The notes under the pieces: model-generated
The model's database searches: none
Told to the model about the DNA's origin: nothing
What the model saw: only the letters and a program-made list of their open reading frames with translations
IMG/VR virus record: IMGVR_UViG_2671180674_000006
Location: 1 to 4,282 of that record
Source of the DNA: a virus
Taxonomy: Duplodnaviria; Heunggongvirae; Uroviricota; Caudoviricetes
Strand: one strand, 5' to 3'
DNA: 4,282 nt
Program-made: the position numbers and the translations under genes
In this document: piece by piece, positions 1 through 4,282 of the stretch
Position numbering within the stretch: the first letter of the stretch is position 1
How the letters are laid out: each line of letters begins with the position of its first letter

Positions 1-149
1 GAACGGCGGTGAAATGGGCACTGGTAGCGATACTGGTGCCTTTTTTCCTGGTGGGATGCGTCAGCCTGGATAAGGCGCGCCAGCTTTTCGATACAGCTTC
101 TCAGGTCTGTGAAATTGTCGACGGTGTTCGGCAGTGTATGCAGAACTGA
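1..149 (+). CDS. Partial ORF (frame 3), putative small lipoprotein; may begin upstream of the window or at GTG 9-11
   Basis: Frame 3 reads TAVKWALVAILVPFFLVGCVSLDKARQLFDTASQVCEIVDGVRQCMQN with stop TGA at 147-149. From GTG 9 it would be MKWALVAILVPFFLVGC...: a basic residue, a hydrophobic stretch and an LVGC lipobox-like motif. A second frame (frame 2) is also open from the window edge and ends at TAA 71-73, so two overlapping reading frames enter the window. No homolog recognised. Confidence 0.35.
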   Translation, partial: TAVKWALVAILVPFFLVGCVSLDKARQLFDTASQVCEIVDGVRQCMQN

Positions 150-320
150 TCGCCTGTAAGAGCAGAATATTTTGCTGAAAAATGAAGGATGCGCTGGCGT
201 CTGGAAAGCATGAAATTCTGTGTTTGTGGCTACTCAATAAAATAAATTCTTTCTGTCGCCGCGAATACTCAAATGTTGATCAGCGCCCGGTGCGGCGACG
301 GGCTTCGATATCAGGAGACG

Positions 321-620
321 ATGATGGAAAAAACAGAAAACAAACCGATTGTAATTGGTGCTGATGCTGCTCCGTTTAAGTTTGAGTTGTCTCAACTGGT
401 GGAGATGCGCATCAGTGATGAATGGGGGGAGGTTAAAGCCCGCGCGCAGTATGCGGATGGCGAAAACCAGTACTTGATCCACTACAAAGCAGCTGATGGT
501 CGCGCCACGATGGAGTGGTTTGGTGAGTCAATGCTGGAAGCAACGGAAGATGATCGCCATCCTGGCTGTCCGGTATTTGCTGGTATGAAATTGCCGGAAG
601 GTGCGGTTGTTACAGAGTAA
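321..620 (+). CDS. Hypothetical small acidic protein (about 98-99 aa) in the moron position between lysis region and cos
   Basis: ORF with GGAG at 314-317 followed by tandem ATGs at 321 and 324 (324 gives the better spacing), stop TAA 618-620. Product MMEKTENKPIVIGADAAPFKFELSQLVEMRISDEWGEVKARAQYADGENQYLIHYKAADGRATMEWFGESMLEATEDDRHPGCPVFAGMKLPEGAVVTE has no signal peptide or TM segment. The listed ORF start at 273 lacks an RBS. I do not recognise the family. Confidence 0.6.
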   Translation: MMEKTENKPIVIGADAAPFKFELSQLVEMRISDEWGEVKARAQYADGENQYLIHYKAADGRATMEWFGESMLEATEDDRHPGCPVFAGMKLPEGAVVTE

Positions 621-631
621 CAGACATTACA

Positions 632-654
632 GCAGCCCTTCAGCGAGGGGCTGC
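632..654. other. GC-rich hairpin 12 nt after the stop of the 321-620 ORF
   Basis: GCAGCCC (632-638) pairs with GGGCTGC (648-654) around a 9-nt loop. On the + strand it is followed by an A-rich run, not a U-run, so it is not a canonical intrinsic terminator for the upstream gene. Confidence 0.3.
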
Positions 655-662
655 GATAATGT

Positions 663-705
663 GAGAAATAAAAAACCGGTCACAGGGAACAGCTACACAG
701 AACCG
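663..705 (-). terminator. Possible minus-strand terminator-like element (copy A of a duplicated motif)
   Basis: AAATAAAAAACCGG at 666-679; read on the minus strand this is a short CCGG-containing stem followed by TTTTTTATTT. The stem is weak with a large loop. Confidence 0.2.
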
Positions 706-796
706 GCCGGCGAAGACCGCCAATACCACCCATGCATTGATGCAACATACTAATGACAATAGCTGCTCTTGATGTAAATGCAATGTTATGTATCGA

Positions 797-841
797 CGAA
801 AATAAAAAACCGGCAGGGGAAATCCATTGAAGATTTGCCGG
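797..841 (-). terminator. Possible minus-strand terminator-like element (copy B of a duplicated motif)
   Basis: AAATAAAAAACCGG at 800-813. CCGGC (810-814) pairs with GCCGG (837-841) and AAATC (820-824) with GATTT (832-836); on the minus strand the stem is followed directly by TTTTTTATTTT. Imperfect stem, so low confidence. Confidence 0.3.
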
Positions 842-985
842 TGGCAAAAGATGGCCATGCTTTCAACTTTAGTCGCAGGGTTACGGAGTGCAACTACGAA
901 TGCTGCCGGTATATGGCTGAATGGCGTTTCAATGATGTACGTCATCTTATCTGTAAATGTTAATGATAAATGCTCTCATTTGCGC

Positions 986-998
986 GGGTCCTTTCCGG
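986..998 (+). promoter_or_regulatory. cosQ-like / terminase large-subunit-side cos flank
   Basis: GGGTCCTTTCCGG matches, as I recall it, the segment of the lambda right end (…ACGGGTCCTTTCCGGTGATCCGACAGGTTACG) that precedes cosN and contains cosQ. It sits about 14-27 bp upstream of the proposed cosN core. Confidence 0.5.
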
Positions 999-1004
999 AA
1001 TCTG

Positions 1005-1034
1005 AAACACCGGGGGTCGTAGGACGCGCAAAAA
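1005..1034 (+). other. cosN region (terminase nicking site, cohesive-end core); exact nick positions not determinable from sequence
   Basis: The core GGGGGTCGTAGGA (1012-1024) is flanked by conserved lambda-like sequence: GGGTCCTTTCCGG upstream and CGCG…CGCTATTTACGAAAATTTTCAGG (1025-1059) downstream, which closely matches the lambda left-end CGCGGGTTTTCGCTATTTATGAAAATTTTCCGG. The core itself differs from lambda GGGCGGCGACCT and has partial dyad symmetry (GTCGTAGGAC). Confidence 0.55.
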
Positions 1035-1058
1035 CGCGCTATTTACGAAAATTTTCAG

Positions 1059-1078
1059 GGAACCATGTCCGGTTTCAC
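1059..1078 (-). repeat. cosB R-site candidate (R3-like), inverted orientation
   Basis: + strand GGAACCATGTCCGGTTTCAC; its reverse complement GTGAAACCGGACATGGTTCC carries the AACCGGACATG core shared with the two downstream copies. Confidence 0.55.
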
Positions 1079-1084
1079 TACTGG

Positions 1085-1118
1085 TTAACTATATGAAAAA
1101 TATAAAAACAAGCTTTTT
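1085..1118. promoter_or_regulatory. A-tract bend / IHF-like site between R-site candidates (I1-equivalent)
   Basis: Phased A5 (1096-1100), A5 (1104-1108) and T5 (1114-1118) tracts spaced 8-10 bp, positioned between the first and second R-site candidates as the IHF site I1 is in lambda cosB. Only a partial match to the IHF consensus WATCAANNNNTTR. Confidence 0.3.
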
Positions 1119-1135
1119 GTGAACCGGACATGTAC
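1119..1135 (+). repeat. cosB R-site candidate (R2-like), direct orientation
   Basis: GTGAACCGGACATGTAC; core AACCGGACATG at 1122-1132. Confidence 0.55.
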
Positions 1136-1149
1136 AAAAAACGAACATG

Positions 1150-1165
1150 CAAACCGGACATGAGC
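1150..1165 (+). repeat. cosB R-site candidate (R1-like), direct orientation
   Basis: CAAACCGGACATGAGC; core AACCGGACATG at 1152-1162. A degenerate partial copy GAACATG lies at 1143-1149. Confidence 0.55.
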
Positions 1166-1206
1166 GGTTTTCTGATTGTGAGGTGAGAGTTTTTGCGAGG
1201 TGAGTC

Positions 1207-1716
1207 GTGGCTACGCAGACTGAAGTTGCCAGGCATTTGAGTCTGACCGATCGCCAGCTTCGCAGATTGCAGAAATTGCCGGGTGCCCCGGTCTCGAATA
1301 AACGGGGGCATCATGACTTGGATGCCTGGCGTGATTTTTACATATCGTATCTGAGGAGAAGTAAAAATGATGTGTCTGATGGTGATAGCGAAGAAGACTA
1401 TGAAGAAAAATTACTTATCGCCAGATGGAAATTGACTGAAGAACAGGCAATAGCACAGCAATTAAAAAATCAGGTAACTGAAGGCAGACTTATTGATTCA
1501 GGGTTCTGCGTTTTCGCCCTCAGCAAACTGGCGATGGCATTGTCCAGTACGCTTGATTCCATTCCTTTATCCATGCAGCGACAGTTCCCGGATTTAACCC
1601 CGCGTCATATTGATTATCTGAAAACCCTTATCGCAAAGGGAGCGAATCAGTGTGCGCGGGCAGGGGATAAATTGCCGGAGTTACTCGATGAATATATCCG
1701 AACAACAGTTGAATAA
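1207..1716 (+). CDS. nu1: Terminase small subunit (lambda Nu1-like), GTG start
   Basis: GTG start at 1207 preceded by GAGGTGAG (1198-1205), stop TAA 1714-1716. The C-terminal half (…GFCVFALSKLAMALSSTLDSIPLSMQRQFPDLTPRHIDYLK…LPELLDEYI…) matches my recollection of lambda Nu1 (…AFCTFVLSRIAGEIASILDGLPLSVQRRFPELENRHVDFLK…IPGLLSEYIEQSG); the N-terminal third is divergent. Lies immediately downstream of cos and overlaps the start of the large subunit, as in lambda. Confidence 0.85.
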   Translation: MATQTEVARHLSLTDRQLRRLQKLPGAPVSNKRGHHDLDAWRDFYISYLRRSKNDVSDGDSEEDYEEKLLIARWKLTEEQAIAQQLKNQVTEGRLIDSGFCVFALSKLAMALSSTLDSIPLSMQRQFPDLTPRHIDYLKTLIAKGANQCARAGDKLPELLDEYIRTTVE

Positions 1717-3604
1717 TATGATGATCGCCGTCACAACCGCATTACAGCCACTAATAAGGGCATTGCCGGTCACGCCGGTTGAATGGGCTGATCAAAATTA
1801 TTATCTGCCTAAAGAATCGTCATACGGTGAAGGAGAGTGGAAAACCCTGCCGTTTCAGGTCGCCATTATGAACAGCATGGGGCACGACAGGATCCGCACT
1901 GTTAATCTGATTAAATCGGCGCGTGTGGGTTACACCAAAATGCTGCTGGGCGTGGTCGGGTATTTTATTGAGCATAAATCCCGTAACAGCCTGCTCTTCC
2001 AGCCGACAGATTCCGCAGCTGAAGATTTTATGAAAGCGCATGTGGAAGCAACGCTCCGGGATGTCCCCAGCCTTAAAGCGTTATCGCCATGGCTGGGCAG
2101 AAAACATCGGGACAACACACTCACCCTGAAGCGTTTTTCCTCCGGCGTGGGGTTCTGGTGCCTGGGGGGGGCCGCTGCTAAAAACTACCGTGAAAAATCT
2201 GTGGATGTGGTCTGCTATGACGAACTCTCCTCGTTTGAACCGGATGTGGAAAAAGAAGGCTCGCCGACGCTGCTTGGCGATAAACGTATCGAAGGCTCGG
2301 TATGGCCTAAATCCATACGCGGCTCAACGCCAAAAATTAAAGGCTCCTGCCAGATTGAGAAAGCGGCGAATGAATCTGCGCATTTCATGCGGTTTTATGT
2401 CCCTTGCCCTCATTGCGGGGAGGCCCAGTATCTGAAGTTTGGCGATGATGCGACGCCGTTTGGCCTGAAATGGGAGAAGGGTAAACCCGAAACGGTGTAT
2501 TACCTGTGTGAACATAATGGCTGTGTGATCCGCCAGTCGGAACTTGACCAGACCGACGGATGCTGGATTTGTGACAATACCGGGATGTGGACGCGTGACG
2601 GCCTGACATTTTACAGTGCCGGTGATGAGGAAATCCCGCCACCGCGCTCAATTTCGTACCACATCTGGACGGCATACAGCCCGTTCACCACCTGGGTACA
2701 GATTGTTTATGACTGGCTCGATGCACTGAAGGATCCGAATGGCGTCAAGACGTTCATTAACACCACGCTCGGGGAGCCCTATGAAGAGGCCGTGGCAGAA
2801 AAACTGAGCTTTGAGTTGTTGCTGGAAAAAGTCTGCCACTATGGCGCGCAGGTTCCCCTGCGGGTGGTTTACCTGACCGCAGGGATAGACTCCCAGAAAG
2901 ATCGCTATGAAATTTATGTTTGGGGCTGGGCTCCCGGCGAAGAAGCCTTTCTGATTGACAAGCAAATTATCATGGGGCGACCGGAGGACGAGGACACCCT
3001 TAAACGTGTTGATGCGGTGATCCGGAAAAAATACCGCCATGCTGACGGTACTGAAATTTCCATTTCCCGCGTCTGCTGGGATACCGGTGGTATCGACCAG
3101 GACATTGTGTATCAACGTTCCAGGAAACACGGCACTTTTTTTGTGCTTCCCATAAAAGGGGCATCGGTGTATGGCAAGCCGGTGATCACCATGCCCAAAA
3201 AGCGCAACCAGCGTGGTGTGTTTTTGTGTGAGGTGGGCTCCGATACCGTCAAGGAAATGCTGTACGCCCGTTTTGCCCTGCCGGTGGTTTCTGCCAGTGA
3301 AGCAGCCCCGTATATCTTCCGTTTTCCGGATAACCCGGACATTTTTTCGGAAGAAGAGGCGCGTCAAATCGTAGCGGAAGAACTGGTGGAAAAGGTGGTT
3401 AACGGCAGGGTGAAACTGCTGTGGGATAAAAAAGGGCGACGCAACGAAGCCCTCGACTGCCTGGTATATGCTTATGCCGCCCTGCGCGTTTCGGTACAGC
3501 GGTGGCAACTGGACCTTGAAGCGCTGGCGAGGGCACGAAGAGATGAGCAGGATGAGGATGATATGAGCATGGAAGAGATCGCGGCTGCACTGAGTGGAGG
3601 ATAA
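1688..3604 (+). CDS. A: Terminase large subunit (lambda gpA-like), ATPase/endonuclease
   Basis: Start chosen at ATG 1688 (MNISEQQL…, GGAG at 1677-1680) rather than the listed GTG 1652, because lambda gpA begins MNIS…. Long collinear similarity to lambda gpA as I recall it: VEWAD-NYYLPKES, KSARVGY-KMLLGV, FWCLGG-AAKNYREKSVDV, GSPT-LGDKRIEGSVWPKSIRGSTPK, HFMRF-V-CPHCGE-QYLKFGD, IWTAYSPFTTWVQIV, YLTAGIDSQ-DRYE--VWGW-PGEE, IPIKGASVYGKPV, WDKKGRRNEALDC. Stop TAA 3602-3604. Confidence 0.95.
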   Translation: MNISEQQLNNMMIAVTTALQPLIRALPVTPVEWADQNYYLPKESSYGEGEWKTLPFQVAIMNSMGHDRIRTVNLIKSARVGYTKMLLGVVGYFIEHKSRNSLLFQPTDSAAEDFMKAHVEATLRDVPSLKALSPWLGRKHRDNTLTLKRFSSGVGFWCLGGAAAKNYREKSVDVVCYDELSSFEPDVEKEGSPTLLGDKRIEGSVWPKSIRGSTPKIKGSCQIEKAANESAHFMRFYVPCPHCGEAQYLKFGDDATPFGLKWEKGKPETVYYLCEHNGCVIRQSELDQTDGCWICDNTGMWTRDGLTFYSAGDEEIPPPRSISYHIWTAYSPFTTWVQIVYDWLDALKDPNGVKTFINTTLGEPYEEAVAEKLSFELLLEKVCHYGAQVPLRVVYLTAGIDSQKDRYEIYVWGWAPGEEAFLIDKQIIMGRPEDEDTLKRVDAVIRKKYRHADGTEISISRVCWDTGGIDQDIVYQRSRKHGTFFVLPIKGASVYGKPVITMPKKRNQRGVFLCEVGSDTVKEMLYARFALPVVSASEAAPYIFRFPDNPDIFSEEEARQIVAEELVEKVVNGRVKLLWDKKGRRNEALDCLVYAYAALRVSVQRWQLDLEALARARRDEQDEDDMSMEEIAAALSGG

Positions 3605-3607
3605 AGG

Positions 3608-3817
3608 ATGGTTTATACGCATGAAATGCTTTGCGAGGCGCGTCGGGCATTACATGAACTGATGATCGGGCGTGCTGTGGTTTCTGTCGGCAGGAACGGA
3701 CGGCAGGTTCAGTATTCGCGTGCGACGATTGGTGAACTGCGGCAATACATTGAAGAGCTGGAGAGTGCGCTGGGCGTGTCCGGACGGCGTCGCGGTCCGG
3801 TGGGAGTGAGACTGTGA
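3608..3817 (+). CDS. W: Head-tail joining / head completion protein (lambda gpW-like)
   Basis: ATG 3608 with GGAGG at 3595-3599, 3 nt after the large-subunit stop; stop TGA 3815-3817. The 69-aa product MVYTHEMLCEARRALHELMIGRAVVSVGRNGRQVQYSRATIGELRQYIEELESALGVSGRRRGPVGVRL resembles lambda gpW as I recall it (…[27 protein letters not shown]…YIAELE…RRRGPAGFYV) and is in the expected position. Confidence 0.9.
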   Translation: MVYTHEMLCEARRALHELMIGRAVVSVGRNGRQVQYSRATIGELRQYIEELESALGVSGRRRGPVGVRL

Positions 3818-4282
3818 ATGTGGAGTTGATAGATGTTCACGGACAGCCCCTGCGACAGAGTATGGGATATTCCGGTGGCGGCTCCGGATTTGGTGGGCAG
3901 CTTGCGGAATGGTTACCTGCGCCGGAAAGTGCCGATGTGGCGCTGCTGCCTTCCATTCAGTTGGGTAATGCCCGTGCGGATGATCTGGTCCGTAATAATG
4001 GCATTGCCGCGAATGCTGTGGAAATTCATAAAGACCATATCGTCGGGCATATGTTTCGTCTGAGTTATCGCCCCAACTGGCGCTGGCTGGGGATGTCGGA
4101 AGCAGATTCACATGCTTTTATTGAAGATGTTGAGGCGGCGTGGATGGAATACTGCGATCCGGTGTTTGGTACGATGGATGTGGAAGGGCGTCGTTCGTTT
4201 ACCGAATTCATTCGTGAAGGGGTGGGTGTCCATACTTTTAATGGAGAAATATTTGTCCAGCCTGTATGGGATGCGGAATCCA
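3814..4282 (+). CDS. B: Portal protein (lambda gpB-like), 5' partial, continues past window end
   Basis: The frame opens after an in-frame TGA at 3733-3735 and the first start codon is GTG 3814 (GGGAG at 3802-3806), overlapping the W stop as GTGA; GTG 3820 and TTG 3826 are alternatives. Translation …GYSGGGSGFGGQLAEWLPAPESADVALLPSIQLGNARADDLVRNNGIAANAVEIHKDHIVGHMFRLSYRPNWRWLG…FNGEIFVQPVWD… matches my recollection of the lambda gpB N-terminus (GYHGGGSGFGGQLRSWNPPSESVDAALLP…GNARADDLVRNNGYAANAIQLHQDHIVG…). Confidence 0.9.
   Translation, partial: MNVELIDVHGQPLRQSMGYSGGGSGFGGQLAEWLPAPESADVALLPSIQLGNARADDLVRNNGIAANAVEIHKDHIVGHMFRLSYRPNWRWLGMSEADSHAFIEDVEAAWMEYCDPVFGTMDVEGRRSFTEFIREGVGVHTFNGEIFVQPVWDAES

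Follow-up and report, generated by a model that had tools for sequence, protein, structure and literature searches.

Positions 960-1206 of a 4,282-nt stretch of viral DNA (Caudoviricetes; IMG/VR record IMGVR_UViG_2671180674_000006, positions 1 to 4,282; the whole stretch is hereafter called the window) probably form a functional lambda-type cohesive-end site (cos) of a lambdoid prophage, whose predicted overhang, GGTCGTAGGACG, is not that of lambda. Among viral packaging signals cos has been studied best, and the definition of a 'lambdoid' phage formerly included identical cohesive ends. The original prediction described a complete cos at 986-1206, with lambda-like flanks around a non-lambda core, and most of that description holds. 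The anatomy of the site, the families of the neighbouring genes, the register and two-fold symmetry of the core and its variation in the population are matters of observation, and the reading is built on them.

A cosQ block, a core at the position of cosN, a block resembling lambda I2 and three R repeats follow one another directly upstream of genes assigned by Pfam to the Nu1, gpA, W and portal families, all four scores being well over threshold (Table 1). The cosQ block GGGTCCTTTCCGG is present at 986-998 as an exact match, with 0.12 chance matches expected from shuffled sequences at up to two mismatches. The second lambda-like block, CGCTATTTACGAAAATTTTCAGG at 1037-1059, was matched in none of 200 shuffles even at three mismatches; we take I2 to be its label in lambda, as we take the cosQ heptamer to lie at lambda bp 48473-48479. 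High conservation of cosQ has been reported (PMC4669245). The GTG start of the Nu1 gene at 1207 corresponds to bp 193 in the proposed register, compared with 191 in lambda. Furthermore, the site lies uncut between lysis-region and terminase genes, the order of a prophage or of a circular or concatemeric form, as the original prediction had concluded from its internal position. The closest relative in a complete genome is a chromosomal Shiga toxin 2 (Stx2)-converting prophage of Escherichia coli STEC409 (93.6% identity over 97% of the window), and its layout is the same.

The core departs from lambda, as had been claimed. In the best register, GGTCGTAGGACG agrees with lambda GGGCGGCGACCT at 6/12 bases, with mismatches at positions 3, 6, 7, 9, 10 and 12, while cosQ and the I2-like block are kept, so that a non-lambda sticky end is predicted. 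Two details of the earlier description need adjustment. The string GGGGGTCGTAGGA named as the core is present at 1012-1024, but the 12 bases homologous to the lambda end are those at 1015-1026, 2-3 nt further right. In addition, the lambda-like character of the flanks is borne out for cosQ and the I2-like block and fails for the bases next to the nicks, where the left flank reads GG and not CG. A mere misalignment, with a lambda-identical overhang hidden in another register, had been named as an alternative; no register restores the lambda 12-mer. The difference is not a matter of misalignment, because gpAs that are 92-100% identical adjoin many different 12-mers and because the lambda 12-mer occupies exactly the same position in PhiR12-type phages, whose cosB and Nu1 are the same. 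Comparison with other cos regions found no lambda-type 12-mer in the core and no resemblance between the region and the left end of HK97. With its 6/12 identity the site does not fit the classical lambda cohesive-end group (GGGCGGCGACCT ends), and the gpA-family terminase and the unrelated HK97 left end do not fit an HK97-type cos or headful (pac) packaging.

The twelve bases that form the end were located by rebuilding the lambda cos from the joined ends of the lambda record and comparing it with the window subsite by subsite in a MAFFT alignment. Between the cosQ and I2-like blocks, 38 nt in the window face 39 nt in lambda, and the two stretches are largely different. The alignment sets its sole single-base gap directly after the cosQ block and GGTCGTAGGACG under GGGCGGCGACCT; the length difference is therefore assigned to the cosQ-cosN spacer. 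PhiR12-type phages, like many IMG/VR prophages, combine the R sites of the window and an 88%-identical Nu1 with lambda's exact cosN. Their 12-mer ends 37 nt from R3, the same distance as from 1026 to 1064 in the window, and R3 therefore falls at bp 50, as in lambda. The cosN-cosB distance has been reported as critical (PMC9026076). Intermediate sequences fit the same register. For instance, an IMG/VR locus (L095) has a W-like left flank (ending in CCGAG; the W class is the window's type of cosN, defined below) followed by the exact lambda 12-mer in the 1015-1026 register, and a second locus (L051), like the STEC409 prophage, has GGGCGGCAGACG inside W-type flanks. The linear record of Hafnia phage yong2, whose left flank is GAAACACCGAG, is broken right after the equivalent 12-mer and before CGCG, as in lambda. 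Two-fold symmetry across 19 W-class 12-mers peaks at 4.21 of 8 pairs in this register and falls to 2.5-3.0 when it is shifted by 1-2 bp; in the window itself, the pairs -1/13, 2/11, 3/10, 4/9 and 6/7 are symmetric.

On alignment, spacing between the right-hand nick (N2) and R3, the intermediates L095, L051 and yong2, and the symmetry peak, the 1015-1026 register is thus preferred. The nicks, placed by homology and symmetry with a 12-nt stagger taken from the family, are predicted between 1014 and 1015 on the top strand and between 1026 and 1027 on the bottom strand; an uncertainty of 1-2 nt remains for the top-strand nick. It is distinctly unlikely that the same cos is nicked elsewhere, leaving an overhang at 1013-1024 (GGGGTCGTAGGA) or a 14-nt overhang at 1013-1026 bounded by both CG dinucleotides. 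The first of these registers reads CCG^GGGGTCGTAGGA^CGCG (carets mark nicks) and would keep the canonical CG on either side, dinucleotides that are highly conserved at both nicks (PMC4669245); it lies close to the core of the original prediction, and its variable positions, 7-10, would fit the published pattern in which the right half varies. It was nevertheless rejected on cosN-R3 spacing, symmetry and intermediate loci: it puts cosN 2 bp further from R3 than in lambda-cosN phages that share the window's cosB and Nu1, yields only 2.54 of 8 symmetric pairs against 4.21, makes position 1 itself variable (G, A or C) within the class, and starts two bases to the left of the canonical GGGCGG of L095 and L051. 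A 14-nt stagger would demand another geometry from gpAs that are 83-100% identical to those acting on the lambda 12-mer, and is considered unlikely.

The core of the window belongs to a type of cosN, here called the W class and defined as GAAACACCGRG^12-mer^CGCAAAAAC (right flank also given as CGCAAAAACGCGCTATTTATG), that is widespread in E. coli. A 91-bp probe across the core matched 553 of 5426 complete E. coli genomes, and flank-only patterns recovered the class in 50 IMG/VR contigs and 24 metagenome contigs. In a scan of one genome per species, 39 matches were obtained, among which only that in Escherichia whittamii was genuine; the remaining 38 were without cosQ and are consistent with chance, some 17 chance matches being expected (a rough estimate). 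When 80 IMG/VR loci were gathered by gpA alone, and hence without bias as to cos, they fell into three flank classes. The lambda class (gpA 82-84% identical to the window's) reads GTTACG^GGGCGGCGACCT^CGCGG; the C class, with the cdtI-type flank (gpA mostly ~92%), reads CCACG^GGGCGGCAGCGG^CGCGG, with three related 12-mers in addition; and the W class (gpA 93-100%) reads GAAACACCGRG^12-mer^CGCAAAAACGCGCTATTTATG.

Within the W class, 19 alleles were found in 46 distinct contexts, with the general form GG[T/G/A][C/A]NNNN[G/T/C][A/C]CG. Position -2 is G or A in this class and position 3 mostly T; positions 5-8 are free, and positions 9-12 are kept nearly as well as 1-4. cosQ and the right CG are retained. 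Pairs 2/11, 3/10 and 4/9 are complementary in 16-17 of the 19 alleles, and pair 4/9 is C.G in 13 alleles and A.T in four, a double change; pairs 5/8 and 6/7 are near chance (3/19 and 6/19). At least six cosB/Nu1 types adjoin the W core, and conservation of cosQ, the left flank and the I2-like block extends over 46 or more distinct contexts with six or more types of cosB. Even gpAs that are 92-100% identical adjoin W 12-mers differing at up to six positions. The allele of the window was met in three distinct contexts in the fetched collections and in one of the 5426 complete E. coli genomes. The lineage of vB_EcoM-705R4, whose gpA is only 43% identical, uses a W-class core that is also present in the lambda-like group. 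That lineage (L008, which is vB_EcoM-705R4 itself, L015-L043, L147 from E. whittamii and E. coli matches H93-H136) shows the allele GGTCGGTAGACG only, has a different small subunit and is common in ST131-type genomes. The lambda-cosN class (L098-L124) has an invariant 12-mer in 21 unique loci, despite 9% divergence at 4-fold sites, and a cosQ-cosN spacer that varies (0.12/site). The pattern of the W class is the opposite, with the spacer end GAAACACCGRG conserved and the interior of the 12-mer variable.

Four loci (L203 at 4299-4348 on the plus and 5057-5106 on the minus strand, and L204, L128 and L130) carry two convergent W-class cos sites ~750 bp apart, which differ in 12-mer and in cosB-like sequence. 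In L203, capsid E-like and decoration D-like genes immediately precede one copy, and a 146-aa helix-turn-helix protein follows it; past the other copy there is an AIDA/Ag43-type autotransporter gene. Such loci may represent a satellite element, similar to the phage-inducible chromosomal islands, abutting another cos-bearing element.

According to the published rule for cosN, the CG flanks and the left half GGGC are conserved and variation is confined to bp 7-12 (PMC4669245). A later paper, citing Vahanian et al. 2017, repeats that lambda-like phages agree fully in the first four bases and in the two bases that flank either side. The window reads GG^GGTC...^CG, in which the right flank fits the rule and positions -2 and 3 do not. 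By its sequence, the W class is a departure from this rule and, apart from the core, is to be read as an ordinary lambda-type packaging site. Six 12-mers of the W class, the C class and yong2, when searched for, did not appear in a phage context in the searchable literature, though Vahanian et al. 2017 (Virology 509:140) may list the class.

Several observations weigh against a functional cos with the overhang GGTCGTAGGACG. The left flank is GG instead of the conserved CG and position 3 is T instead of G, so that, if the lambda rules are taken strictly, nicking of the top strand could be displaced or impaired. Among deposited phages with a W-class core none has its termini at cos, no IMG/VR contig starts or ends there, and the basis of the record ends of yong2 and cdtI is undocumented in the sources. 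The integration host factor (IHF) consensus WATCAANNNNTTR had no match with at most one mismatch in 1076-1121, the position of I1, and repeat analysis shows R1 inverted relative to the R arrangement of lambda, in which R1 is oriented as R3 and R3 occupies bp 50-65 (PMC9026076). Finally, only 4.3 kb is visible, and the prophage could be defective.

Many lambdoid prophages of E. coli are defective, and a decayed cos in one of them, its core changed once selection had ceased, would account for the same letters. Decay would agree with the fact that DNA packaging has yet to be demonstrated for any W-core phage, and with the truncation of the SerU-LTIIb prophage, which has a related core. It would not, however, change the core alone and leave its neighbours, from cosQ and the left flank to the I2-like block and the R repeats, as they are. 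Moreover, the W class is found in 46 or more distinct contexts with its outer positions symmetric and the frames of Nu1 and gpA intact, the Nu1, gpA and W reading frames of the window are intact, and its closest relative is a full-length Stx2 prophage with complete head genes. A non-functional remnant is thus highly improbable, and the functional cos is retained as the preferred reading.

The nuclease centres of the large terminase subunit TerL have been described as weakly sequence-specific and as positioned by anchoring at cosB (PMC9026076), and because TerL would read the core weakly and cosB anchors it, the core would be free to differ from lambda. Coevolution of gpA and cosN was considered and set aside. 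Eight gpA columns are unique to W (405, 555, 556, 559, 561, 581, 583 and 627), all in the C-terminal nuclease domain, but they are lineage markers, because lambda, cdtI and yong2 share some of them and the 705R4-type gpAs share two of the eight. In the sequences compared, no co-variation of gpA with the W core is apparent.

The core diversity could instead be actively generated or selected, either by faster mutation of single-stranded ends or by diversifying selection, among prophages and satellites resident together, for ends that do not cohere. In the lambda-like W group, the interior positions 5-8 diverge by 0.565/site compared with 0.148 at 4-fold sites of gpA, and by 0.42/site compared with 0.043 at 4-fold sites of Nu1 when a single Nu1 type is considered; the flanks diverge by 0.09-0.11/site. 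Among 11 lambda-like close pairs, five differ in the 12-mer, in blocks of 6, 4, 4, 3 and 1 bases, and the lambda class shows the opposite, an invariant 12-mer. In 48 close pairs (300 bp of left and 700 bp of right flank at least 95% identical), however, divergence of the 12-mer (0.031/site) equals that of the flanks (0.030), a result on which overhang hypermutation was dropped, and in the 705R4 lineage the allele stays the same although the flanks diverge by 3-5%. The differences come in multi-base blocks, as in allele exchange, and in the lambda-like subgroup only; the pairs are not phylogenetically independent. Active generation or selection of the diversity is accordingly judged unlikely. 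Allele exchange is favoured because the changes in the 12-mer come as multi-base blocks, which suggests that the W-class 12-mers behave as exchangeable alleles. Mismatched ends are viable and can persist through replication (PMC4669245). Since a cyclised genome takes its left flank from the cos at which packaging terminated and its right flank from the one at which it was initiated, cosN would be a natural joint between them, and it offers a plausible route for the exchange.

A working scheme can be proposed in which cutting, cut position and overhang length are predictions from the lambda family. Dimers of the Nu1-family small subunit would bind the three R repeats (CATGTCCGGTTT); a gpA anchored at R3 would nick the bottom strand after bp 12, between 1026 and 1027, and a second gpA would nick the top strand between 1014 and 1015. 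After separation of the ends, the mature chromosome would carry the 12-nt 5' overhang GGTCGTAGGACG, with 5'-GGTCGTAGGACGCGCAAAAACG as its left end; at the right end, the top strand would stop at ...GAAACACCGGG and the bottom strand would have the 5' extension CGTCCTACGACC. Packaging would proceed to the right from cosB and would be terminated at the next cos by cosQ, acting with the next cosN. In this scheme, gpA would read a few two-fold-symmetric contacts (-1/13, 2/11, 3/10 and 4/9) together with the anchoring distance from cosB, and positions 5-8 could differ freely because nick placement would be set by that distance and those contacts. In an extension to which we assign a low probability, the W-class cosN would be a second design of lambda-family nicking site, with gpA reading only the outer triplets 2-4 and 9-11 and the central four bases freely exchangeable. 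Selection might then keep many mutually non-cohering sticky ends among the lambdoid prophages and satellites of shared E. coli hosts, as cohesive-end incompatibility groups. If true, this would restrict the joining of ends from different elements and make it harder for one element to rescue or pirate the DNA of another.

For the window itself the practical consequence is small, as the prediction is of a normal packaging site. For the class, confirmation of the predicted ends would narrow the sequence needs of gpA nicking to a few symmetric contacts and cosB anchoring, would provide a natural series of ~19 overhang alleles for testing terminase specificity, and would show that cos searches by GGGCGGCGACCT miss W-class phages.

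Table 1. Features of the window around the predicted cos, with positions numbered from its first letter; carets mark predicted nicks.
Feature	Position	Strand	Description
Two small late-region open reading frames (ORFs)	start of window		prophage/circular-order layout of the lambda left-end region
Non-coding DNA	621-1206		between the late-region ORFs and the small terminase gene
Conserved block TTAATGATAAATGCTCTCATTTGCGC	960-985	+	upstream of cosQ; aligns with lambda, phi80, PhiR12, cdtI and SerU (ATGATAA..TCATTT)
cosQ block GGGTCCTTTCCGG	986-998	+	13/13 as in lambda
cosQ heptamer GGGTCCT	986-992	+	packaging-termination signal
cosQ-cosN spacer AATCTGAAACACCGGG	999-1014	+	16 nt (lambda 17); class-specific left flank GAAACACCGRG at its end
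cosN	1013-1028		predicted 12-bp cohesive-end segment with 2 bp on either side, GG^GGTCGTAGGACG^CG
Predicted 5' cohesive end GGTCGTAGGACG	1015-1026	+	6/12 as in lambda GGGCGGCGACCT
Class-specific right flank CGCAAAAACG	1027-1036	+	bp 13-22; only CGC in common with lambda CGCGGGTTTT
I2-like block CGCTATTTACGAAAATTTTCAGG	1037-1059	+	between cosN and R3; 21/23 as in lambda; kept across lambda, C and W classes
R3 CATGTCCGGTTT	1064-1075	+	predicted small-terminase binding site (repeat analysis); first base at bp 50 from the predicted left end (bp 50-61)
A+T-rich spacer	1076-1121		where lambda has the IHF site I1
R2 AACCGGACATG	1122-1132	-	repeat analysis; opposite in orientation to R3
Degenerate extra R-like copy AAACGAACATG	1139-1149	-	82% identical to R2
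R1 AAACCGGACATG	1151-1162	-	repeat analysis; oriented as R2
Small terminase subunit, Nu1 family	1207-1716	+	169 aa, GTG start; Pfam PF07471, E = 4e-20
Large terminase subunit, gpA family	1688-3604	+	638 aa, ATPase and endonuclease domains; Pfam PF05876, 2.4e-53, and PF20454, 1.8e-68
gpW head-tail joining protein	3608-3817	+	Pfam PF02831, 4.8e-24
Lambda-family portal, N-terminal part	3817-4282	+	continues past the window edge; Pfam PF05136, 1.2e-26

Further features of the region were recorded beside those of Table 1. No Rfam family, promoter-like site or convincing terminator was found in 600-1215. A perfect 9-nt inverted repeat, CGCAAAAAC (1027-1035) and GTTTTTGCG (1189-1197), flanks the entire cosB; its left arm is part of the W-class flank and its right arm goes with this Nu1 type, and their pairing is probably coincidental, because each arm is found without the other in further loci. 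Directly 5' of the Nu1 GTG start lies a direct repeat, TTGTGAGGTGAG (1176-1187) and TTGCGAGGTGAG (1193-1204), both copies of which contain the Shine-Dalgarno-like GAGGTGAG. To the left of cos, positions 1-661 are 96.5% identical to phage phiP27, whose detectable DNA similarity to the window is confined to this stretch. The small ORFs there comprise one at 9-149 with a lipobox-like LVGC (phrog_7528) and one at 321-620 (phrog_1935). A 136-bp block upstream of cosQ (801-936) is 89-90% identical in phages cdtI and phi458, whose small terminase subunit is another one and whose cosN is of the C class. Packaging modules of different types thus seem to share the stretch just left of cos.

Among known systems, lambda has the same subsite and gene order as the window, with cosQ (13/13), the I2-like block (21/23) and R3 at bp 50 in common. 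Agreement falls to 3/10 in the 10 bp that follow the 12-mer and to 7/37 in cosB beyond the I2-like block; the 12-mer agrees at 6/12, the left flank is CG where the window has GG, and the cosQ-cosN spacer is unrelated and 1 nt longer. The lambda R site CGTTTCCKTTCT is unrelated to CATGTCCGGTTT, and lambda R1 is not inverted. The N-terminal part of lambda Nu1 has no detectable similarity to that of the window, and only the C-terminal part resembles it. In phi80, the upstream part of a 55-nt feature annotated in its record as 'cosQ; aka R4 region' corresponds to window 960-985.

The PhiR12-type E. coli phages (PV340549-PV340554) are deposited complete genomes with E. coli K-12 or C as hosts; no paper on them was found. 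Their R sites, spacing and R1 arrangement are those of the window, their Nu1 shows 88% identity, without a change in the first 28 residues, and their gpA is ~84% identical. Yet they carry lambda's exact cosN and left flank, GTTACG^GGGCGGCGACCT^CGCGG, and homology to the window starts only at 1039.

Variant 12-nt 5' ends are known from other gpA-family phages, in which the terminase tolerates the changes. N15 and phiD326 change bp 9 and 12, Gifsy-1 departs from the lambda sequence at 8, 9 and 11, and mEp213/LLS has GGGCGGCGCGCT, changed at 9 and 10 (PMC4669245); by sequence comparison, the left end of N15 is GGGCGGCGTCCG. These variants, described by the Feiss laboratory, change only positions 7-12 and keep GGGCGG and the CG flanks, whereas the window is also changed at 3, 6 and -2; they conserve the left half, and the W class the outer four bases on each side. 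The C class of cdtI and phi458 likewise combines a gpA-family terminase and cosQ with a non-lambda 12-mer, that of cdtI, GGGCGGGAGCGT, standing at the start of its record, but retains the CACG flank and the GGGCGG left half, unlike the window. In yong2, GGGGCAGCGACA precedes the break in the record and the left flank is as in the window; the small subunits and cosB of both yong2 and cdtI differ from the window's.

Elements of the vB_EcoM-705R4 type and SerU-LTIIb agree with the window in the W-class cosQ and left flank, in the frame of the core and in the right flank CGCAAAAAC. In the former, gpA is 43% identical, cosB and the small subunit are different and the 12-mer GGTCGGTAGACG is invariant; the latter is a truncated prophage with a related core. 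A plain lambda cos is present in the related Stx2k phage phiSTEC1575, whose similarity to the window breaks off exactly at the end of the cosQ block. The prophage of STEC409 (L210, locus 3327-4567 and 9001-9240) is Stx2-converting (e/i/l/k subtype), and W-class cos sites thus occur in Shiga-toxin phages. It shares with the window its layout and its cosB and Nu1 type, a type carried also by PapRG-04-4, and has a different W-class 12-mer.

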